Of a stretch of DNA of 64,000 nucleotides, positions 22,373 to 33,762 are shown in pieces. The stretch spans positions 288,001-352,000 of the forward strand of contig OY969699.1 of the NCBI GenBank assembly GCA_963702025.1, read 5' to 3'. The translations under genes were made by a program, and so were the position numbers. Source of the DNA: an uncultured bacterium (GTDB taxonomy: Bacteria > Babelota > Babeliae > Babelales > Vermiphilaceae). The notes under the pieces were generated by a model, which searched no databases, was not told where the DNA came from, and was given only the letters and a program-made list of their open reading frames with translations. Every line of letters begins with the position of its first letter. The first letter of the stretch is position 1.

Positions 22373-23341
22373 TTATGCATGAGCCGCTTGTGCTTGTGGC
22401 GCATATTTATTATAAGAAGCCACAATCTTATCAACTTTCTTTTGACCGGCGACGATTGCCAATTGCTGCGCAGCCGTTTGGCATGCAACAGGAATTCCCG
22501 ATGCTGTTTTTGCAGCAGAAGAAGCATTTTTTATTAAAGCATGCTTAAATTCCATCTCTTTTTGTACTTTTTCTGTCTCTGCTTTAAATTTAGCGGCTTT
22601 CAATTTTTCTTTTAGATCATTTGCCTTTTGAGCCTCGGTCGGGAAAAAGTATCGATAAATCTCACGGCCTTTATAATACACTATAACACCCACAACCACT
22701 CCTCCCACAACAATGCAGGTTGCAACCGGATGTGCTACCGCAACAGCGGCAACGGTTGATCCGGCAGATTTTATTGCAGCGCCGGTGGTTTTTATGGCAG
22801 CCCCTACGGTATTTAATGCGCCGACACCAACATTTGCGCCTGCATTTGGCGCAGCCTTAGCAAGAGCGATACATGCTTGCTTAATCTCTCCCGATGATTT
22901 TTCAATAACCGGAGCAAGAACTTTGGCTGCTTCAATGCCACCATTTGCCAGAGCCGGCTCAGCAGTTTTTAATGCTTCAGCAAATTTTTCAAGGGCCGGG
23001 ACAGTTTTTGCGGTGATAAAAATACCTGTTTTAGATAGTGTATTCACTGTTTGATTAACAACCGGAATCGCGGTTTTAACAGTTTGTAATCCAACCTCAG
23101 AGCCGGCTGCAGGAAGCGTTGCTAGCAATTCTTTAAGATGTGGCGATAACTCTTTAACGGCTTCAATACCTAATTCTTTAGCAGCTTCATTCATTTTTTG
23201 CGAAGCATCTCGGAGTGCAGGTGCCATAATTTTTGCAGCATTTAAGCCTATATCACATCCCATTCCATTGTCCGCTAAAATGCAATGGAACAATTGGAAA
23301 AGAAAAAGTTGATAAAATACCATCTTTTTTATGTTGTTCAT
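22373..23341 (-). CDS. Exported Ala-rich helical-repeat membrane protein (cassette-adjacent gene D)
   Basis: Signal peptide, repeated G(L/I)xxxKxxxP helices, TM VATCIVVGGVVVGVIVYY, basic tail. Confidence 0.75.
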   Translation of the reverse strand: MNNIKKMVFYQLFLFQLFHCILADNGMGCDIGLNAAKIMAPALRDASQKMNEAAKELGIEAVKELSPHLKELLATLPAAGSEVGLQTVKTAIPVVNQTVNTLSKTGIFITAKTVPALEKFAEALKTAEPALANGGIEAAKVLAPVIEKSSGEIKQACIALAKAAPNAGANVGVGALNTVGAAIKTTGAAIKSAGSTVAAVAVAHPVATCIVVGGVVVGVIVYYKGREIYRYFFPTEAQKANDLKEKLKAAKFKAETEKVQKEMEFKHALIKNASSAAKTASGIPVACQTAAQQLAIVAGQKKVDKIVASYNKYAPQAQAAHA

Positions 23342-23363: not shown

Positions 23364-23864
23364 CTACTGATTAAAAGCGATCAATTTTTGATTAATTTCA
23401 CGACGTTCTTGCTCAAGAACTTCATATCTTTGGATTAAAGTCTTTATAAGTCGATACTCATTAACAATTATTAGAAGAAAAAACTTTATTGCGTCAAAAT
23501 TTTCTTCTATTTGGTCATTTTCAGATTTTCGGAAAAGTTCTTTAATCAAAAAATTATTAACATTTTTTTCATTATTTAAAGTTCTGATAAATGCGACAAG
23601 ATTTTCGTCTACCGCGCGACCGAACTCGCCTCTTTCTTGCTCGTTAAGGTTCTTTTTTTCTAGTTCTGCTCTCAAAATATTGATAGCTTCTTTCCAAGTC
23701 GAACGCGTATACAAATACCTTTCAGCAATTGTCTTGCCCAATTCGGAAAGTTCCATTTCTTTTTTAAATTTAAGCTCTGCTAATTGTGCTTGTGCGTCTG
23801 TTTCATTACCCAAAAGAGTAAGCGGCATTAAAAGAACGGCTAGTAATATATTTTTGTAAGTCAT
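23364..23864 (-). CDS. Exported helical protein (cassette gene C1)
   Basis: MTYKNILLAVLLMPLTLLGN leader nearly identical to 26631..27140; shared NNFL..ELF and INQK/IDQK. Confidence 0.8.
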   Translation of the reverse strand: MTYKNILLAVLLMPLTLLGNETDAQAQLAELKFKKEMELSELGKTIAERYLYTRSTWKEAINILRAELEKKNLNEQERGEFGRAVDENLVAFIRTLNNEKNVNNFLIKELFRKSENDQIEENFDAIKFFLLIIVNEYRLIKTLIQRYEVLEQERREINQKLIAFNQ

Positions 23865-23948
23865 AAAAATTCCTTAAAATAATTGAAAAATTTATTCACA
23901 ATGGGGCATAATCCCGAAAATAGTTTTTAATCTTGTCTCAATAAATCC

Positions 23949-23969
23949 CCCCATGGAAGAACCATGGGG
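23949..23969. terminator. Conserved hairpin between cassette genes B1 and C1 (terminator or stabiliser)
   Basis: CCCCATGG-aagaa-CCATGGGG; equivalent hairpin at 27229-27251. Confidence 0.6.
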
Positions 23970-24010
23970 AGGCCAATGTTAATCTTTGGAATAATGTATC
24001 TCACGCATCG

Positions 24011-24355
24011 CTAATCCGATTCAGCCCGTTTATACTTATAATGATAGACACACCAAATCAACGTTATGCTAAATGCAATTCGGATAATCGGCGCCATATA
24101 AGGGCTAATCTGATACAATGGTTGCCACAGTCCATAGCGTGGAATTTGATAATACCATGCCAGCCATGGGCATCCTATGAACCATACAATAATCATATAG
24201 GTCAAGAAGAAGGGATTTCTGAACGGAGAATTTTCATCGATAATTCTATACCATCGCTCTCGTTCTCCTCCAATTATCATGCTCAAAAGCACTATAACTG
24301 CACCATATAACGTATTTTCAAGTTGGATTAGGCAGGAGTACCAAAATGTAATCAT
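24011..24355 (-). CDS. Small 3-TM membrane protein, putative immunity protein (cassette gene B1)
   Basis: Hydrophobic, Trp-rich; shares FL.Y.I..WF....WL.WY.Q.PR.G.W with 27258..27593. Confidence 0.75.
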   Translation of the reverse strand: MITFWYSCLIQLENTLYGAVIVLLSMIIGGERERWYRIIDENSPFRNPFFLTYMIIVWFIGCPWLAWYYQIPRYGLWQPLYQISPYMAPIIRIAFSITLIWCVYHYKYKRAESD

Positions 24356-24364
24356 ATGTTCTCT

Positions 24365-24856
24365 TTATGGAGTCGGCAAGAGAGTTCCAGCAACCTCCAC
24401 GGTCAATGCTGATGCTTCAATAGCCTCATGAACAAGATGCGCTTCTGCAAGAACTTCTGGATGAAAAATGGCCGCAACTGCATAGCCGCCATAACCCACT
24501 GCACGTACTGTCCATCCGGCAATTTTTCCTGTAATCCAACCGCCGCCATTGCCACGAACCTTTGCCACAAGAGCATATTTCCCTTCTTCAAATTTATTGA
24601 TGCGGATATACCCGTTACCAACAAATTCATTCAAGACTTTATGTTGCGAAACATCTCTGAGCAATGGATTAATATTATGCTTTTCAACAAAATGTTTTCC
24701 ATTCTCATCTTCGACGTAGAAATCTCTCTGATTTGAATACAGCTTAAGATCATTTGCCGATGATACAGCGCTCTGCTCTACCAATTCCATTGCATGAACT
24801 AATGATGAAATACTGAATAAAAATAATGATAAAGAAGTGATGTTACGTATCTTCAC
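24365..24856 (-). CDS. Exported precursor: conserved domain + GGG + variable hydrophobic tail (cassette gene A1)
   Basis: GTG start with AGGAAG RBS; 91/106 aa identical to A2 up to LVAKVRGNGGG, then divergent. Confidence 0.85.
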   Translation of the reverse strand: MKIRNITSLSLFLFSISSLVHAMELVEQSAVSSANDLKLYSNQRDFYVEDENGKHFVEKHNINPLLRDVSQHKVLNEFVGNGYIRINKFEEGKYALVAKVRGNGGGWITGKIAGWTVRAVGYGGYAVAAIFHPEVLAEAHLVHEAIEASALTVEVAGTLLPTP

Positions 24857-24996
24857 GTATTCTTCCTAGCGTTATGTTGTTAATAAATATATACACTGGC
24901 TTGTTCGACATCGCTGCAGCTGAAACCGAAACGCATTACTACTATGGGTCGGGCAATATAATAGAACAATTTTTTTCAAATGAAAAGCATTATTTT

Positions 24997-26226
24997 CTGA
25001 AGTTCGGACATAAATAGAAGAGACTCCTGTTCTGGTGTATTTTTAAAAAAAACAAAGAAACACCAAAAACAGGAGAATCATGATTGCCAAAAAAGATATC
25101 ATAAAAATGATTAATTCGCTAAAAGTATTTAACATTCATGTTGCCGACTTCATCGGATCGATGATTTGGGGGTTCCAACAAGCAAAAAAGCTTAGAATTT
25201 CCAGCATTTCTGCTGCATCACCCGGCAAGTATGAATCTAACTATAAAAACATCACAAGATCTCTAAATAAATTAGAAGTTTCTCAGCTTTCAGAAGCTCT
25301 TTTGTCATTTCAGGACCAAGCGAGTGATATCCTATTGCTCGATTTTACTGAGATGACTCGAAAAAATGCTAAACGCACTGCTTATATTGGATATTTAAAA
25401 GATGGAGAAACACTTGGCTACAGCATATTGGCACTGAGTGTACCATTCAAAGGAAGATCTAAAATAATATTTGCTGATGTAATATCTTCTTCAATCATTG
25501 CTGAGAGCGCAACTGGAAAGTGGAAGCTTATTCAAGAAGCTTTACGCCCATTAATTCCTTTGCTTCAGAGTAAGATAATTGTCATTGATCGTGAACTTTG
25601 CAATGAGGAGATGATCAAGTTCTTTCATAAACATCAAATTCATTATTCAATACGCTTAAAAATAAGTGCTGGAAAAAACCAAATTATTATTACTGACAAA
25701 AAAGGCAGCAGGATTAACATTTCTATTACTCGCGGCTCAAAGAAAAATTGGAAAGGGGTTTATTATAAAGGGAAAATCAAAGTAAATATTGCTGCTGAAT
25801 GGCAAAGCAATATGCCTGAGCCAATGTATATAATTACAGATTGTCAGCCAAGTGAAGGTTTAAAATACTATAAAAAACGCATGAAAATAGAGGAAAGTTT
25901 CAAAGATATAAAAGATAAATTGGGCTTTACAAAAATCATGAATAAAACTTTAGGCAATCTCCTTAAAATGCTCCTCATTGGATTAATTGCCTACAATCTA
26001 TTGATTTTGATAGGCGAAATGCTGCGATTACAAGTGCTCACGAAGCGCGAAAGGCTTAAGTTCAGCGGTTTGCATTTATTGCTTAATATGATTTATTCAT
26101 ATTCTCGATCCAAACTTCGGAAAGCACTACGTCAAGTTGAATTCCATCTGCTTGAAAATAATTCAGATGATGTTGTTTGGTTAAGAGCCTTTAGGAATTG
26201 TTAAAATGAAATTGTCCGAACTTAAG
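24997..26226 (+). mobile_element. IS4-family insertion sequence, apparently intact
   Basis: 14-bp terminal IRs CTGAAGTTCGGACA (24997-25010) / TGTCCGAACTTAAG (26213-26226), 1 mismatch; 7-bp direct repeat TTATTTT at 24990-24996 and 26227-26233. Confidence 0.9.
25080..26204 (+). CDS. DDE transposase, IS4 family
   Basis: LLLDFT, VIDREL, and YREK signature YKKRMKIEESFKDIK. Confidence 0.9.
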   Translation: MIAKKDIIKMINSLKVFNIHVADFIGSMIWGFQQAKKLRISSISAASPGKYESNYKNITRSLNKLEVSQLSEALLSFQDQASDILLLDFTEMTRKNAKRTAYIGYLKDGETLGYSILALSVPFKGRSKIIFADVISSSIIAESATGKWKLIQEALRPLIPLLQSKIIVIDRELCNEEMIKFFHKHQIHYSIRLKISAGKNQIIITDKKGSRINISITRGSKKNWKGVYYKGKIKVNIAAEWQSNMPEPMYIITDCQPSEGLKYYKKRMKIEESFKDIKDKLGFTKIMNKTLGNLLKMLLIGLIAYNLLILIGEMLRLQVLTKRERLKFSGLHLLLNMIYSYSRSKLRKALRQVEFHLLENNSDDVVWLRAFRNC

Positions 26227-26382
26227 TTATTTTTCACCGCAAGGCCAATAGATTAAGCAGGAGGAAATCAAAGAACTTGATAAAGCCCTATTAGTTATGT
26301 TTTATTTGTTCAGCGATTGGCATATAAAAGAAGAAGCGATATAGTTATTTAGAATATTAGTTATGAATTATCAGGATTTCAG

Positions 26383-26625
26383 ATGTCATCTAGATTGCCG
26401 CTCGATTTAAGTACTTTTTCTTTATTGCGCAAATCGGGCTATCTCTATGTGGATAAAACCGAATATGCATACAATCTTATCACGCAGGGACGCAGATACT
26501 TTCTTTCTCGCCCCCGTAGATTTGGCAAATCATTGTTCGTTTCGACGTTGAAAGAAATCTTACATGGCAATAAATCATTATTTAATGGTTTTGGATCGGG
26601 AAAAGTGACTATGAATGGCATTCTC
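26383..26625 (+). pseudogene. Truncated, frameshifted AAA-ATPase-like (AAA + PD-(D/E)XK family) gene
   Basis: YLYVDKTEY, FLSRPRRFGKSL Walker A; the family-typical WIGKSDYEW continues in a shifted frame near 26590, then the gene stops at the convergent cassette gene C2. Confidence 0.85.
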
Positions 26626-26630
26626 AAATT

Positions 26631-27140
26631 TTATGCATGTGAAGAGCCTCCGTTGTTTTGTTTTTTTAGATTTTCAATTTTTTGATCTATCGCTACCATT
26701 TCAGACAAAATTTGTTCATATTCTTCAAACATATTTTTCCAAATAATTCGCTCAATTATGATCCTCATTTGGGCTGATTTTATTTTGCCAAGCCCAAAAT
26801 CATTCTTTTTATTCTCAAAGAGTTCTTGCTTAAGAAAGTTATTAAAAGTTCTTTCGCCTTTAAAAATTTGATTTAATCGATTTAAAAATACATCTATCTC
26901 ATCATTAAATACTTTTTTTTCATCCTCATTCAAAGTTGAAAGTATATCTTGCCAGATGACAGATGCTTTATAAATCATATCTTCAATCAATTCTTCTTGC
27001 CGAGCGATTTTCTTGCCATACTCAGAAGCTTTTAGAATTTGCTCTTTTAAATCGTTTGTTAGTTGGGCTATTTGCTCGCTGTTACCCAAAAGAGAAAGTG
27101 GCATTAAAAGAATAGCCAATAATAGATTTTTGTAAGTCAT
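26631..27140 (-). CDS. Exported helical protein (cassette gene C2)
   Basis: Paralog of 23364..23864 with conserved signal peptide and divergent mature part. Confidence 0.8.
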   Translation of the reverse strand: MTYKNLLLAILLMPLSLLGNSEQIAQLTNDLKEQILKASEYGKKIARQEELIEDMIYKASVIWQDILSTLNEDEKKVFNDEIDVFLNRLNQIFKGERTFNNFLKQELFENKKNDFGLGKIKSAQMRIIIERIIWKNMFEEYEQILSEMVAIDQKIENLKKQNNGGSSHA

Positions 27141-27228
27141 CGAAAATATCCTTAAAATAATTGAAAGTTTTATTCAAAATGCGGCATAAGCTCTGAAAAT
27201 AGTTTTTTTTAGTCTTGTCTCAATTTAT

Positions 27229-27251
27229 CCCCCATGTAAGAACCATGGGGG
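27229..27251. terminator. Conserved hairpin between cassette genes B2 and C2
   Basis: CCCCCATG-taagaac-CATGGGGG. Confidence 0.6.
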
Positions 27252-27257
27252 CATATA

Positions 27258-27593
27258 TTAATCTTTGGAATAATAATATCTATCCATTACAATCATAATG
27301 ACATTTGATATGATCACTACTCCTAATGCAGCCCATCCAAGTATTGGATTATGTCCAAAAAGTAAACTCCAGATGCCCCATCGAGGCTTTTGAATATACC
27401 AAGTGAGCCAGGTAAAAAAACCAAACCACATAACAATTAAGTATGCTAAGAAATACCCGTTACAAAAGTAATCAGGAAATAGTTCTGCGATTTTTGTTTT
27501 ATCACCAATTATGATATGACGAAAGCATAACAGCGTTATACCAATTAATAGGATCTCAACTTGTCCAAGAAAGGCTTGCAAAATGGTGACCAT
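27258..27593 (-). CDS. Small 3-TM membrane protein, putative immunity protein (cassette gene B2)
   Basis: Starts 2 nt after the A2 stop; divergent paralog of B1. Confidence 0.75.
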   Translation of the reverse strand: MVTILQAFLGQVEILLIGITLLCFRHIIIGDKTKIAELFPDYFCNGYFLAYLIVMWFGFFTWLTWYIQKPRWGIWSLLFGHNPILGWAALGVVIISNVIMIVMDRYYYSKD

Positions 27594-27595
27594 AA

Positions 27596-28090
27596 TTATG
27601 GTAATGGGGAAAGGGTTGCAGCAAGTCCCAGTGTATTTGCTGCCGCTTCAATGCCATGCATATATTCAGCCGAGTGCATTAGCATTTCGCCATGACTTGC
27701 CCATACTAATGCCGCAAAGGTACCCCATCCTGCAAGTCGCGTCCCCCACAATGCACACGCGCCAGCAACTGGGCCACCGCCATTGCCACGAACCTTTGCC
27801 ACAAGAGCATACTTGCCATCTTTAAATTTATTGATGCGGATATACCCGTTACCAATAAATTTTTCCAAGGCTTTATGTTGCGCGACAGCTTTGAGTAATG
27901 GATTAATATTATGCTTTTCGACAAAATGTTTTCCATTCTCATCTTCAACATAGAAATCTCTGTGGTTTGTATACAGTTTAAGATCATTTGCCGATGATAC
28001 AGCACTCCGATCTACCAGCTCCATTGCGTGGACTAATGATAAGGTACTGAATAAAAATAATGATAAAGAAGTGATGTTACGTATCTTCAC
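27596..28090 (-). CDS. Exported precursor: conserved domain + GGG + variable hydrophobic tail (cassette gene A2)
   Basis: Paralog of 24365..24856. Confidence 0.85.
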   Translation of the reverse strand: MKIRNITSLSLFLFSTLSLVHAMELVDRSAVSSANDLKLYTNHRDFYVEDENGKHFVEKHNINPLLKAVAQHKALEKFIGNGYIRINKFKDGKYALVAKVRGNGGGPVAGACALWGTRLAGWGTFAALVWASHGEMLMHSAEYMHGIEAAANTLGLAATLSPLP

Positions 28091-28464
28091 GTATTCTTCC
28101 TAGCGTTATGTTGTTAATAAATATATACACTGGCTTGTTCGACATCGCTGCAGCTGAAACCGAAACGCATTACTACAACCCTTTGTTCGTAGCTCAATCT
28201 TTTCTTGGAACCGAGTAGAAAAGAGCGAAGCAGAATGGGTCGGCGAATATCATAGACAAATATTTTTCAAAAGAAAAGCAATTTTTTGCTGTATCTTCCG
28301 GATAAAGCAGGAAAAAATCAAAAAACATTATTATTTATGCTTTATTTGTTCAGCGATTACCGTTACAAAAGACTGAAAGATAGAACTTATTTAAAGAAAT
28401 TTAGTAAATATCATTGTTTCATGTATACTTTAAACTAATTTTTTATTGAAAGTATAGGTGTTTT

Positions 28465-29268
28465 ATGAAAAAATTGTTGTTTCTTTTACTGGTATCTTCT
28501 TCTAACGTATTTTCCATGGAAAACTTAAAAAGTGAAGATGAATTTAACAATATTTTTTGTGCTCTGAATAGCAATCTGAAACCAAAAGTGGTCGCACGCT
28601 TGGCGACTAGTATCGAAAAAGATTCAGAAGCTAAAAAGGATATCAGTCAGTTGTATGATCTTAAAAACGCTCTTTATGCACTTACTGAAAGCGATGATTA
28701 TATTAGTGCCACAAAAAAAGTTTTAGAATCACTTGAATTACAACCCAACCTAAGTGCGTTGAATGGATTGATCCATCTAGCTGCAGATAATTTTGCAGTA
28801 GAAACAGTAAAAGCTCTTCTTAAATATGGTATACCTGCTGATGAATATGAATATATAAAAGTGCCCGGAGCAGAGTATAAAAAAACACCGCTTTATAAAA
28901 GTTGCACGATTCCCTACAGAATTGATGACACAGGTTTAATACCTAAAAGGATTGCTATTGTACAAGCTTTATTGGAAAATAAAGCTGATGCTAATGCATT
29001 AAATGGCGCTGATCAGGTAGGGTATAGCACTCAAACTGCGTTGTTCCGCTTGCTTGTAACAGAATGTCGGCTCAATCCACAGATTCTTGCCCATCGAAAA
29101 TCTATTATCGATCTTTTAGTAAAGGCAGGTCTTGATATTGAAATAAGAAACTCAATAAACCAAAACTGCTGTTGAGTATGCATATGCTAAATCTTCCATT
29201 AAAGATCAATGTGCCAAGATTTGGTGAATCACGTACTACAACGCGCCAATGAAAGATCCAATAATTAA
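28465..29268 (+). pseudogene. Exported ankyrin-like protein with frameshifted C-terminus (ORF 28465..29175)
   Basis: Paralog of 30097..30984 and 32689..33762; homologous TAVEYAYA and DLVNHVLQR segments continue in shifted frames after 29165. Confidence 0.65.
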
Positions 29269-29329
29269 ACCTTTTTTTATTGCATCTTAATGCTCTTTCT
29301 ATTTACCTTAAGTTAAAAAAAGGAAAAAT

Positions 29330-29980
29330 ATGAAATATAAAGCATTTTTATCCCTGATAGTTGCCACTTCACATGCCATGGAAATTAATGATCCATGGAT
29401 CCTCCATAAAACAGTTAAAAAGTTTGATATAGAAAAAGTGAATGAGTTACTTGCGGCAAAAAAAGTCTCCGTTAATGCAACAAACAGTAATCGTGAAACG
29501 CCGCTCCATGTAATCTGTTCCGTTGAATGTGATGCGGTGGTGCCCGAAATTGGGGAAAAACGGGTGGCAATCTGCAAAAATCTTATTGCCAATGGCGCGG
29601 AAGTAAACAGTGTTGATCGGCATGGTGAAACACCATTTTTTAATGTTTTTTGTTATGGACCAAAGATTATTAATCCTCGTGAGCAGAATGGTGGCCATGA
29701 AGAGGAAGTTCTTACTTGCTTTCTTGAACAACGAAAAGAAATCATATCACTGTTAGTTGTAAACCAATGTAATACCGAACACACAAACAGCACTGGCCTC
29801 ACTGCCTTTTATAAGGCGTGTCAAAAAAATGATGCCTTCTTAAAAAAATTGATCGCCTATGCAAAGAGCATGGAGTTAAAGGGCATTGAGAAAATAGATG
29901 ATCCCAGACAACCGCTATTCGGATTAGGAGCTCTTCAATCAGATGGTAACATTTGTTACGAATTTTGCTCAATATCATAA
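29330..29980 (+). CDS. Exported ankyrin-repeat protein
   Basis: VNATNSNRETPLH, GAEVNSVDRHGETPF, TNSTGLTAF. Confidence 0.8.
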   Translation: MKYKAFLSLIVATSHAMEINDPWILHKTVKKFDIEKVNELLAAKKVSVNATNSNRETPLHVICSVECDAVVPEIGEKRVAICKNLIANGAEVNSVDRHGETPFFNVFCYGPKIINPREQNGGHEEEVLTCFLEQRKEIISLLVVNQCNTEHTNSTGLTAFYKACQKNDAFLKKLIAYAKSMELKGIEKIDDPRQPLFGLGALQSDGNICYEFCSIS

Positions 29981-30096
29981 CAATTTTTATCAGCGCTTTG
30001 GTGCCGGCATTAAACGGTGGTCGCAATGGACAAAAACGGCCAAAAGTTCTACCTTTGTACTCACATTTTTAATTATACCAAAAAAAGGTGAACAGC

Positions 30097-30984
30097 ATGA
30101 AAAAGACTCTCTTAACCATCGTGGCATTTTCTGTACAAAATTCCGATACGATGACAAAAGATATTTCAACGTACATGAAAAATGGAGAAAAAATTGATCA
30201 TCTCTTTTCTCCCGGCGATCTTGATAATCCTCTCTTTAAATTTGCCGCGGGCGATGAGTATCTTCCAATAACCACAAAAATATTGGATTATGGCGTTAGC
30301 GTTGAAGGGTATAGCGGACATTCGCCGCTCCATGTTGCCGTTGATAAAGGTGCTTTGCTAACCGTTACGAAACTTCTTGCGCACAACATTGATCCCAATA
30401 CAAGGAGCGATAAATTGCAGGCTACCCCGATCGAACTTGCGTGCCAAGTATTAAACCGTCCAACAAGTAACTATGGGGAACCCGCACCATTCCGTACAAC
30501 TTGCTTTGAAAAAACTTTGAGAAATATAGAAATTATTCGAGCGCTTCTCGATAAAAAAGCCAACCCGAAATCAATGTTATTTTTTCTGATGACGCATTGG
30601 CTAGCTCTACCAAAGTTTACCGGTCCCCAGCAAGAGACTTTGATTTTCATAAATAAAGAAATAATTGGCAGTGCATTCAAAAATGGTCTTAATATTTGGC
30701 TCAAAAATAATGAAAATAAAACAGCATTGGAAAATGCTGCAGGCCAACATGGCGCCAACCCAAGCCAAATCTCTTTAGTAAATTATGTATACGAACTTGA
30801 ACGCCAAAAAGTCTTAAAAGTTGTGCGGTACACAGTAAACGGCCCAAAGGCACGTTCACCATTTAAGCTCTTGCCAAAAGAGATATGCGAAATGATTATT
30901 AAGCTTGCATATCCGGTAATCGTCTTACCATCTGATGAGATTCATGAAATTAATGCGCAAACATTTCTTCATGGATTAGCTTAA
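30097..30984 (+). CDS. Ankyrin-repeat protein with C-terminal F-box-like motif
   Basis: GHSPLHVAV, ATPIELAC, NNENKTALENA; SPFKLLPKEICEMIIKLAYP. Confidence 0.8.
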   Translation: MKKTLLTIVAFSVQNSDTMTKDISTYMKNGEKIDHLFSPGDLDNPLFKFAAGDEYLPITTKILDYGVSVEGYSGHSPLHVAVDKGALLTVTKLLAHNIDPNTRSDKLQATPIELACQVLNRPTSNYGEPAPFRTTCFEKTLRNIEIIRALLDKKANPKSMLFFLMTHWLALPKFTGPQQETLIFINKEIIGSAFKNGLNIWLKNNENKTALENAAGQHGANPSQISLVNYVYELERQKVLKVVRYTVNGPKARSPFKLLPKEICEMIIKLAYPVIVLPSDEIHEINAQTFLHGLA

Positions 30985-31025
30985 ATGATGTAAAAAAATT
31001 TCATTCAGATAGAGGAAAAACATTT

Positions 31026-31817
31026 ATGAAAACAAAATATCTTGCAATGCTTTTGCTATTTATTCCCTCATTAAATTTTTGCATGGAAGATGAGGGCTTT
31101 TTCTACCTTATGGAATCTGAATCGGAGGCCAAAGATAGAAAAGAACAACTCATAAATATCATCAATGAACGGCTAGAAAAAAACCTGGATTTGAATGCGA
31201 AAATGGGGTTTCCCTTTGCGAATCAAAAGCCATTACATCGGGCAATACATCATGATCGAACTGGCCAAATAGCCCTAAAATTGCTTAGCGCCGGAGCCGA
31301 TCCAAATGTTAATAATGGCTGGGGGGAAACCCCTTTACATTGGGCATGTAGACCACGTATATCTCTTGAAAATATAAAAATACTGCTAGCATATAACGCA
31401 AACCCAAATATTTATGATACTGCAGGATTATATCTAATTCCCACATCTTATGAAACCCCTCTGCATAATTTGTGTGCAGCATCCCATAGCGCCGATAAAC
31501 AGATTGCTCTCAAACTTTTACTTGCGCACGGCGCAAATTTTTCTTTAGAAAAAAATGGGTATGGCAAAACATGCTTAGAATTATTGTCGGAGACGGATCC
31601 AAATTTGGGCCAAATAGCCAGGCGCATTTACCATCATAAAATTGCTGCCTATATTTTGTTGCTGAGAGGAAAAGAAACAAATGAGTCTTTATTCAGACGC
31701 CTGCCAAAAGATTTGCTCAAATTGATTCTGGGTAGCATTTTCCCCAATTTTCCATGGCCAGGAGAAATTTTGAATTCCGCCAAACTTCTTGCTCTTTTGA
31801 AACCGGAGCCGAAATAG
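31026..31817 (+). CDS. Exported ankyrin-repeat protein with C-terminal F-box-like motif
   Basis: GADPNVNNGWGETPLHWAC, ETPLHNLC; SLFRRLPKDLLKLILGSIFP. Confidence 0.85.
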   Translation: MKTKYLAMLLLFIPSLNFCMEDEGFFYLMESESEAKDRKEQLINIINERLEKNLDLNAKMGFPFANQKPLHRAIHHDRTGQIALKLLSAGADPNVNNGWGETPLHWACRPRISLENIKILLAYNANPNIYDTAGLYLIPTSYETPLHNLCAASHSADKQIALKLLLAHGANFSLEKNGYGKTCLELLSETDPNLGQIARRIYHHKIAAYILLLRGKETNESLFRRLPKDLLKLILGSIFPNFPWPGEILNSAKLLALLKPEPK

Positions 31818-32648
31818 TACATTTGCTGTTTTTTTTGGCACAATGGTGAAAAGCAATTGAGTAAAAAAATTTTAATAATTCTTGTATTTGGAAATAGAGC
31901 ATGAAAACAAAATATCTTGCAACGCTATTACTATTCGTCCCTTTTTTAAATTTTTGTATGGCCGATTGGGATTCGATTTCCCGAATAAGGGCTAAATCAA
32001 GAACTGAACGTCAAGAAGAAGAGAATAAGAAAGCAGTAATAGCCACAATCAATGAACGATTAGAGAAAAAAATAGATCTAAATGAACTCATGCTTGCTTG
32101 GCCGGGCCATAAACTGTTACATCGAGCGGTTCATTATGATCACACTGGTGAATTGGTGCTAAAATTACTCAAAGCTGGGGCATTCCCGGATGTATTCGAT
32201 AACTGTGGACGAACTCCTCTCCATTGGGCATGCAATTCATTATCTCCCGAAAATCTAAAAATACTTCTTGCATATAATGCCAATCCCAATACTGCACTTC
32301 GCAACTCTACCCCTTTGCATAAAATATCCGAATCAACTAATAATTCGAGCTCCAACACACAAATAGCAGTTAAGCTTTTACTTGCTCACGGTGCGCATCC
32401 TTTAAAAAAAAATTGTTATGGAGAAACATGTTTGCAAATATTAGCTAAATATAATCCGAAATTAGAACAAATAACCAGGCGGATTTACCATCATAAAATT
32501 GCTGCCTATATTTTGTTGCTGAGAGGAAAAGAAACAAATGAGTCTTTATTCAGACGCCTGCCAAAAGATTTGCTCAAATTGATTCTGGGTAGCATTTTCC
32601 CCAATTTTCCATGGCCAGGAGAAATTTTGAATTCCGCCAAACTTCTTG
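31626..32648 (+). repeat. 166-bp perfect direct repeat (31626-31791 and 32483-32648)
   Basis: Base-by-base identical from ATTTACCATCAT to AAACTTCTTG. Confidence 0.9.
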
Positions 32649-32692
32649 ATCTTTTGAAATCAGAGCAAAAGCAAATTAAAGGAGATTCATGA
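31901..32692 (+). CDS. Exported ankyrin-repeat protein with C-terminal F-box-like motif, paralog of 31026..31817
   Basis: GRTPLHWAC, STPLHKI; C-terminal module identical to the upstream gene. Confidence 0.85.
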   Translation: MKTKYLATLLLFVPFLNFCMADWDSISRIRAKSRTERQEEENKKAVIATINERLEKKIDLNELMLAWPGHKLLHRAVHYDHTGELVLKLLKAGAFPDVFDNCGRTPLHWACNSLSPENLKILLAYNANPNTALRNSTPLHKISESTNNSSSNTQIAVKLLLAHGAHPLKKNCYGETCLQILAKYNPKLEQITRRIYHHKIAAYILLLRGKETNESLFRRLPKDLLKLILGSIFPNFPWPGEILNSAKLLDLLKSEQKQIKGDS

Positions 32693-33762
32693 AAAAAAAA
32701 TTTGTAGTTTTGGTAGTGTTAATCGTGCTCAACTCAAATACCATAAAAGCATGTTATAGCACACTTGAACATATGTCACGGCGACATACAGCAACCGAGA
32801 CGGCAGAAACACTGAGAGCACTACGCGAAAGCAAAGAAAAAGAAGAGCGTGAAAAAAAAGAAAAAACACAAAAATTGATAAAAACTCTTGAAGATGCACT
32901 GGCAAAAAACGAAAGTGTGAGCCATTTCTGCAATCTAACTGACCCGAAAAATGCTCTCTTTCAACTTGCCCAAAGCGATGAATATATTGAGATAACAAAA
33001 AAAATTTTAAAATCGGGAATAATGCTCAATCCATACACGTTGCAGCCTTATCAAAAATATTCTCCCTTACACGGTGCCGTGCAAAATTTGGCCGTAGAAA
33101 CAACTAAAGAATTACTACGTCATGGCATCCTCCCCAATACCTACGATACTGATGCTGAAACGCCACTCTATAAAATTTGCAATTTTTCCAATGACTCGCC
33201 ACCGCAAATGGTGCAAAAAAGAATAACGATCGCTCGTGTTTTGCTGGCAAATAAAGCTGATCCTAATGCAATAAATGGGCACTTTGGCTATACGCCCAAT
33301 CCAACTGTATTATTTCCATTACTTGCGCCTTGCCTCGATCGTGATCGCTCTATTGAACAATTGGCTATACCCGAGCGCAAATCACTTTTTGATCTCTTAT
33401 TTAAAGCAGGAATAAAAATCCATATCGAGAACTCACAAAACATTACTGCTATGCAAAAAGCGTATGCAGAACTTGGCACGATACCCGAGTTTGTGGAATT
33501 GATAAATTATGTCTTTCAGCGTGAACGTGAAAAAGTATTAAAGATTCTACGCAAACCAGGAAAGGGACCAAAGGCGTATTCACCTTTTAAACTTTTACCT
33601 TTAGAAGTATGCGAGATGATCATTAGTTTTGCATATCCAGAAATAACCCTAAAACCTAAAAATCAGTTCCAATCTTCACTTACAAAGATGGAGTTTCTAA
33701 ACATGTTTAAAGAGGTAAGCACTGAAACCCTGTATCAAAGATCTCTCGGGAAAAATGCGTAA
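32689..33762 (+). CDS. Exported ankyrin-repeat protein with C-terminal F-box-like motif
   Basis: YSPLHGAV, ETPLYKIC, ANKADPN; SPFKLLPLEVCEMIISFAYP. Confidence 0.85.
   Translation: MKKKFVVLVVLIVLNSNTIKACYSTLEHMSRRHTATETAETLRALRESKEKEEREKKEKTQKLIKTLEDALAKNESVSHFCNLTDPKNALFQLAQSDEYIEITKKILKSGIMLNPYTLQPYQKYSPLHGAVQNLAVETTKELLRHGILPNTYDTDAETPLYKICNFSNDSPPQMVQKRITIARVLLANKADPNAINGHFGYTPNPTVLFPLLAPCLDRDRSIEQLAIPERKSLFDLLFKAGIKIHIENSQNITAMQKAYAELGTIPEFVELINYVFQREREKVLKILRKPGKGPKAYSPFKLLPLEVCEMIISFAYPEITLKPKNQFQSSLTKMEFLNMFKEVSTETLYQRSLGKNA

Follow-up and report, generated by a model that had tools for sequence, protein, structure and literature searches.

What is encoded by two genes, one for a putative secreted precursor (A) and one for a small membrane protein (B), that occur together twice on the minus strand of a 64,000-nucleotide (nt) stretch of DNA (contig OY969699.1 of assembly GCA_963702025.1, positions 288,001 to 352,000; hereafter the window)? 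The window belongs to the order Babeliales of the phylum Dependentiae, and its genome is assembled in one contig at 95% completeness. An original prediction for this locus held that A joins a constant leader to a swappable hydrophobic tail and that the downstream membrane gene B is cognate to that tail, and this core idea passed every genomic test that had been proposed for it. On the basis of comparative genomics, we consider it probable that A-B is a Sec-exported polymorphic toxin-immunity unit of Babeliales, in which the C-terminal hairpin of A would damage the inner membrane of competing Babeliales and B would block it. Such a system is most likely membrane-depolarizing and aimed at kin within a shared protist host. 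The four genes in question are these:

27596..28090, minus strand: A1, putative toxin precursor of 164 amino acids (aa), with a signal peptide at about residues 1-22, a pro-domain at residues 23-105 (window 27776-28024), and a Gly-started predicted hairpin tail of 59 aa (27599-27775)
27258..27593, minus strand: B1, 111 aa with 3 predicted transmembrane (TM) segments, putative cognate immunity protein
24365..24856, minus strand: A2, 163 aa, same layout as A1, with a tail of 58 aa (24368-24541)
24011..24355, minus strand: B2, 114 aa with 3 predicted TM segments, putative cognate immunity protein

All six minus-strand open reading frames (ORFs) predicted for the two copies of A, B, and a third gene, C, are present at the expected positions. 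The A-B spacings of 2 and 9 nt and the tail endings PLP and PTP are also as described, and a hydropathy script gives three TM segments for each B protein. A1 and A2 are identical at 91 of 106 positions up to the GGG and then at 20 of 57 in the tail, in line with the abrupt break originally reported; at the DNA level, 30-nt blocks match at 24-30 of 30 positions in the pro-domain and at 9 of 30 in the first block past the glycine codons. B1 and B2 share 33 of 107 residues (31%), and C1 and C2 share 58 of 153. Only two blastn matches connect the copies, 27774-28176 with 24540-24942 (92%) and 27082-27274 with 23806-23995 (84%). A third A gene, which had been missed, lies outside the window and 47 kb beyond A1 (G000:C1:362888-363529); its pro-domain is 77% identical, but its tail is 109 aa long and its partner, of 69 aa, is a different one.

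When a profile built from 29 pro-domains was searched against 261 genomes of the phylum, the pro-domain was found in 84 of them, two by weak matches and all in one order; the family comprises 1,234 clusters at 50% identity. The pro-domain matches no Pfam, NCBIfam, or PDB family among those tested; the family has no match in plasmid or phage collections. Gene neighborhoods were taken from 115 stretches around A matches, among the matches listed, with 36 further matches outside this sample. With the stretch holding the third A (L001) and the window included, 141 pro-domain hits were obtained, of which 4 partial ones were dropped; a stop codon and 700 nt of downstream sequence are available for 131 of the remaining 137. 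The layout of A is a Sec-type signal peptide, a constant 83-aa folded domain, an R-x-x-G-G-G junction, and a hydrophobic tail. A signal-peptide-like start is seen in 123 of 143 near-full-length homologues, none of these 123 with a lipobox, and each of the three junction glycines is at least 90% conserved among 121 aligned proteins.

The model of mature A1 (mean predicted local distance difference test score, pLDDT, 92.7) has a beta-rich domain, with the pro-domain modeled at pLDDT above 90, a glycine linker, and two long helices (84-109 and 113-138). Fold searches returned generic matches to the hairpin alone. The tail is predicted to be a helical membrane hairpin, with a basic residue in its first helix and a glutamate in its last: lysine or arginine occurs at tail residues 8-18 in 82 of 99 cases, and glutamate 14-26 residues from the end in 84 of 99. 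Typical tails have a median grand average of hydropathy of 1.16, zero net charge, and a proline motif at the end. Tail length, between about 50 and more than 200 aa, depends on a Gly/Ala/Thr/Val-rich middle, and the longest A homologue among the best 150 has 420 aa. Frameshifted or truncated A genes also occur (L007, L021 (L045), L016 (L085), L052, L064, and L135), several of which keep their downstream partners.

The identity break at the glycines, originally put forward as a point on which the idea could fail, proves general across the family. In within-genome pairs whose pro-domains are at least 75% identical, the tails are less than 50% identical in 23 of 26 cases, and several pairs that are 97-100% identical in the pro-domain carry tails of different class. 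Mapped on a pro-domain tree of 94 rows (a quick tree from which f18/f19 insertion forms and truncated and unclassed rows were excluded), tail class changes 30 times, compared with a shuffled mean of 29.7, and the starred branches alone require 15-16 changes. At the level of sequence, these comparisons show that tails are exchanged by recombination at a fixed glycine junction and that tail classes are scattered at random over the pro-domain tree.

Which gene lies downstream goes with the tail. That the two should co-vary across Dependentiae homologues had been proposed as a check, and two approaches agree that they do. Tail similarity predicts partner family with an area under the receiver operating characteristic curve (AUC) of 0.865 (0/2000 shuffles; 238 cross-genus pairs, 23 genes), whereas pro-domain similarity over the same 238 pairs gives an AUC of 0.526 (541/2000 shuffles). 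Families built from partner sequences alone show the same pattern when sorted by tail, and it holds when each genus is counted once. Among 37 GPV-ending tails, 31 have next to them downstream either two paired 46-aa genes (46a/46b) or a 143-aa gene, and the B1/B2 family comes next after 58-aa His-bearing tails in 3 of 3 cases. The 41 long tails are followed by a 65-75-aa family (BI, 12 cases), by an STM3941-like partner (3 cases), or by unrecognized singletons or nothing (26 cases). By these genomic measures, the downstream gene tracks the tail rather than the pro-domain, and each tail class has its own family of small predicted membrane partners.

A small hydrophobic ORF or recognized partner stands after 88 of 102 hairpin-ending tails, 7 of 11 other tails, and 2 of 18 soluble-ending tails, the last set including some frameshifted genes; the background rate of the ORF rule by itself is 117 of 1,274 ordinary genes. 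A stricter rule gives 51 of 99 hairpin-ending tails, 3 of 32 soluble-ending tails, and 39 of 1,273 ordinary genes, both rules being crude enough to mis-bin A1 (stricter) or A2 (looser). Once two further loci (L152 and L158) are added, the B1/B2 family follows all five known tails of the 58-aa class, and a tail like that of A2 (T2) goes with a B2-like gene. In L158, a tail resembling that of A1 (T1; 45%) precedes a gene 46% identical to B1 and 29% to B2, and in genome G185 a leaderless orphan T2-like tail (61%) precedes a gene 40% identical to B2 and 37% to B1, a small margin. The B1/B2 family has 23 proteins, and partners overall span 44-190 aa in at least 7 families; no signaling domain was found in them. 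Pore-forming colicin immunity proteins likewise have about 110 aa and 3 TM segments, and their Pfam families are absent from the matches of 26 B-family members (E up to 1). The STM3941-like partners, a type distinct from B1/B2, appear related to NCBIfam NF041635, with two members scoring 28.3 bits (E 1e-6) and 36.8 bits (E 3e-9), below its cut-off of 40 bits.

Partners also occur away from their usual position. Homologues of B1/B2 stand behind unrelated A-partner pairs in L148 and L159 and alone in L151 and L156, and of the 117 partner-family hits in the A loci, 28 fall past the first downstream position. Poly-immunity-type loci among the A loci are L045, L113, L148, and L159; L150 holds a cassette of truncated pro-domain, tail, and partner, and L152 a leaderless tail with its partner. 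Of the 261 genomes, 41 carry the 46b family, and 8 of these 41 lack any A match. No pro-domain or tail was detected in 16 stretches surrounding 46b hits remote from known A, two of them near contig ends, and three of the 16 (L180, L188, and L190) hold mixed partner arrays. Retention of partners without clients fits immunity genes and is hard to reconcile with chaperones, and lone and arrayed partners, even in genomes without detectable A, fit defense against the tails of other cells.

In the mechanism that we propose, A would cross the inner membrane by Sec and then exit through a type II secretion system or in vesicles; two secretins are encoded in the genome. The pro-domain may serve as an export tag, a receptor binder, or a shield for the hydrophobic hairpin. 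Within a shared protist, the hairpin would then oligomerize in the inner membrane of a rival Babeliales cell and make it leak ions, and B, seated in the inner membrane, would block its cognate hairpin. The glycines could be a cleavage site, or they could serve just to link the two parts and to allow recombination; it seems to us about equally likely that the tail is released there and that the hairpin acts uncleaved. Partner-less forms with soluble ends, mostly f18/f19, are probably host-directed membrane effectors in some lineages.

Several observations weigh against a toxin-immunity system. Tails and partners match no known toxin or immunity family, and no enzymatic toxin domain is attached to the pro-domain among 36 longer homologues, unlike in Maf. 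No recurrent protease accompanies A in the 115 loci, save a USP (ubiquitin-specific protease) gene in three related loci. By rule, 14 of 102 hairpin-ending A genes have no partner; a partner of a recognized family is lacking after 26 of the 41 long tails and 15 of the 23 of middle length, which are followed by singleton hydrophobic ORFs or by none; and two unrelated partner families can go with a single tail class. Tail classes were moreover set by eye after the data had been seen, so that the AUC test alone is free of that choice. The model also offers no account of how the toxin would pass to a rival's inner membrane inside the host cell.

These points leave room for other explanations. A could be a host-directed membrane effector, inclusion-membrane-like or aimed at mitochondria, with B as a dedicated chaperone or a guard against self-damage. 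Soluble-ending variants mostly lack partners, and the genome is rich in signal-peptide effectors, for example ankyrin proteins. According to the available portions of the cited papers, Chromulinavorax remodels the host mitochondrion and has signal peptides on 44% of its proteins (PMC6561590), and Zhang et al. read endosymbiont toxins without immunity genes as host-directed (PMC3482391). A chaperone is useless without its client, however, yet the partners stand alone, in arrays, and in genomes without detectable A, and as an account of the whole system we regard this as rather unlikely. Co-variation of tail and partner would suit any ligand-receptor pair, and the lack of toxin homology would agree with non-lethal self/non-self recognition or signaling, with the tail as an identity peptide and B as the membrane receptor for it. 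Partners of 44-190 aa without a detected signaling domain, and the absence of a recurrent kinase or regulator across the 115 loci, make such a role quite unlikely.

F-pilin and TraQ are a precedent for a filament subunit with a membrane chaperone, and A might be a pro-pilin, or the subunit of another filament, that undergoes antigenic variation, B being the chaperone. The long leader, the two-helix hydrophobic mature part, and the secretin genes, of which two lie within 8 kb of the third A, would agree with this. It is nevertheless highly unlikely given the spread of tail lengths, the orphan partner arrays, the lack of plasmid or phage matches, and the presence of A in just 84 of 261 genomes, whereas the text available to us reports secretins for every TM6 genome studied (PMC4776705). 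The original prediction had pointed to the size of circular bacteriocins, and T1 and T2 (58-59 aa, hydrophobic, and acidic) do resemble group ii peptides, with both tail termini conserved and at the same end of the hairpin. Clusters for circular bacteriocins all carry DUF95/SpoIIM, as far as the available part of the review goes (PMC6131525). The size argument fails for the family, whose length range is much wider; DUF95/SpoIIM is absent from the genome (6 of 14 control genomes positive), and no membrane ABC exporter recurs across the 115 loci. Head-to-tail cyclization is the least probable reading that we considered.

Double-glycine (class II) bacteriocins and microcins combine a Gly-Gly junction, a small hydrophobic peptide, and an adjacent small immunity gene with a short leader that has no signal peptide. 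The original prediction was right to set A apart from them: A has a signal peptide and the folded 83-aa domain described above, and the C39 exporter missing from the locus is missing from the whole genome (0 matches; 7 of 14 control genomes positive). Identity with double-glycine bacteriocins was rejected on these grounds.

A bolder idea concerns the junction itself. The pro-domain might be a host-activated safety catch whose last strand mimics the C-terminal strand and di-glycine of ubiquitin, such that a deubiquitinase, either the protist's or the parasite's own secreted USP, would free the hairpin only inside the host cell, where it would kill co-infecting bacteria, some lineages having turned it on host membranes. 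If true, bacteria would be fighting one another with a weapon that the eukaryotic ubiquitin system arms; we consider this unlikely. Arginine lies five residues ahead of the site in 138 of 154 proteins, and R-[LIVM]-x-G-G is present in 20 of 24 f18/f19 members; outside f18/f19 the commonest form is R-G-x-G-G (49 of 113), which counts against mimicry. Against five Babeliales ubiquitin domains, hhalign gives a probability of 3.4%, over the last 18 columns only and in register with ubiquitin's last strand, and 0.6% for the f18/f19 set. No ubiquitin family appears in the Pfam matches of 121 A members. The A1 model runs four strands, two helices, and two strands, an order unlike beta-grasp, with fold searches dominated by the hairpin. 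No overall homology to ubiquitin is detectable; the likeness is confined to the last strand and is clearest in f18/f19. USP-type deubiquitinase domains (PF00443) occur in 90 of 261 phylum genomes, with up to nine matches each, and in 0 of 14 control genomes; in the window's family, USP is found in 8 of 79 genomes and A in 39 of 79, which counts against arming by USP. Given the lack of profile homology, and with the distribution of USP not matching that of A, arming by a host enzyme is a bold minority reading. The window's own genome has a USP gene (G000:C1:1273421-1274470). Secreted proteins with true ubiquitin domains were seen in L165-L168 (G232, G145, G220, and G010), with a poly-Gly stretch after the domain in L166 and L167 and a hydrophobic helix after that in L167.

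Among described systems, the closest layout is that of MafB/MafI of Neisseria and lineage-specific pro-domain toxins and effectors (MAFB-N, Microscilla-N, and Amoebophilus APD1/APD2), judged, like the other comparisons here, from the accessible parts of the sources (PMC3482391, PMC4287609). Shared features are the signal peptide, a lineage-restricted constant domain, a polymorphic C-terminus, a downstream immunity gene, and orphan cassettes. In contrast to Maf, A proteins have just 160-300 aa, their tails are all hydrophobic hairpins rather than enzymes in the cases seen, the partners are membrane proteins, no upstream lipoprotein or lipobox recurs, and the carriers are obligate intracellular; no Pfam match to DUF1020, the MafB N-terminal domain, was found in 121 A members at E up to 0.1. 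Contact-dependent inhibition (CDI) ionophore toxins are also polymorphic and membrane-directed, with cognate CdiI immunity proteins whose identity within a group is about 30% (PMC11630599), against 31% for B1/B2; A differs in having no filamentous CdiA and a two-helix hairpin instead of a five-helix bundle, and no sequence match was found. EsxX, with ExiAB/ExiCD, has a Gly-rich membrane-depolarizing C-terminus and two unrelated immunity types for one toxin, one of them a membrane-protein pair that occurs as an orphan, comparable to the 46a+46b and 143-aa families (PMC12744356). Its export is by a type VII secretion system with LXG, in Gram-positives, and no homology was found. By analogy, the A cargo may work in the manner of CDI ionophores and EsxX. 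The CRCT/CRCA modules of Rickettsia, toxin-antidote pairs proposed for competition among obligate intracellular bacteria (PMC9111745), have CDI/Rhs-like C-terminal toxins and no sign of kinship with the A family. A-B does not belong to the Maf, CDI, double-glycine, or circular bacteriocin families.

We found no description of A-B in a literature search whose scope excluded subscription journals and supplements, and the word "toxin" is absent from the main text, as available, of two Dependentiae genome papers (PMC4776705, PMC6561590). The genomic data strongly support a real, phylum-wide, and undescribed system. Dependentiae are widespread obligate protist parasites with tiny genomes and mostly uncharacterized secreted proteins, and a toxin-immunity system found in roughly one third of their genomes, together with orphan immunity islands in genomes that do not produce the toxin, suggests that they fight over host cells, a side of their biology that we did not find in print. 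The system would add a new export domain or pro-domain, candidate ionophores of very small size in several classes, and no fewer than seven families of partners. One leader module bearing both partner-guarded and partner-less tails offers a possible path from antibacterial toxin to host effector.

The remaining features of the locus are listed here:

28091..28176, minus strand: conserved 5' leader of A1, the same 86 nt as the A2 leader
27226..27255, minus strand: stem-loop 3' of B1, which likely terminates the A-B transcript or protects its end
26631..27140, minus strand: C1, secreted helical protein of 169 aa, co-duplicated neighbor and not core
26383..26685, plus strand: AAA-ATPase-like gene fragment (pseudogene; PF09820, E 2e-23, model positions 2-66 of 201)
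24997..26226, plus strand: IS4-like insertion sequence (IS), transposase 25080-26204, 14-bp terminal inverted repeats, short target duplication
24857..24942, minus strand: conserved 5' leader of A2, 86 nt identical to the A1 leader
23947..23971, minus strand: terminator-like stem-loop 3' of B2
23364..23864, minus strand: C2, secreted helical protein of 166 aa, neighbor
22373..23341, minus strand: D, 322 aa, with a signal peptide, an Ala-rich region, one TM segment, and a Cys-bearing C-terminal domain

The original prediction treated C as part of a conserved triad, which the wider sample does not bear out: C occurs in 13 of 115 loci (6 genera), and a further homologue lies elsewhere in the genome without A. 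D, which falls outside the interval first described, is found in 18 of 115 loci (7 genera), is a frequent neighbor of C, and has no Pfam or NCBIfam match. In the rearranged locus L158 (1870-5460), one A-B pair lies apart from C-D and on the opposite strand, and a bare A leader is left ahead of C. We take C and D to be secreted neighbors that were duplicated along with A-B here and lie outside the core. The D family has a variable-length Ala/Gly-rich spacer and forms tandem arrays with the C family. A hairpin had been predicted between B and C; a local stem does follow each B, and the end of B and its stem-loop are retained in L158 as after B1, although the surrounding regions fold no better than shuffles (z -1.3 and -0.6).

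The 1,230-bp IS, present in five identical copies in the genome, and the AAA-ATPase fragment lie between the two A-B-C copies and had been overlooked. Insertion of the IS just upstream of the conserved promoter-like region of A2 may change A2-B2 expression. The 5' leader of about 90 nt is likewise conserved ahead of A in L001, L158, and L160, with no match of note in Rfam, and A1 has an additional hairpin-forming insert of about 55 nt upstream of it. The third A (L001 7888-8529) sits 2.5 kb downstream of two secretin genes (G000:C1:366024-371191); secretins do not recur near A in other loci, where the stretches cover just 1.2 kb upstream. Beyond A1, window 28465-33762 encodes a run of signal-peptide proteins, the first with Pfam ankyrin matches, and several end in what we take to be an F-box-like stretch.

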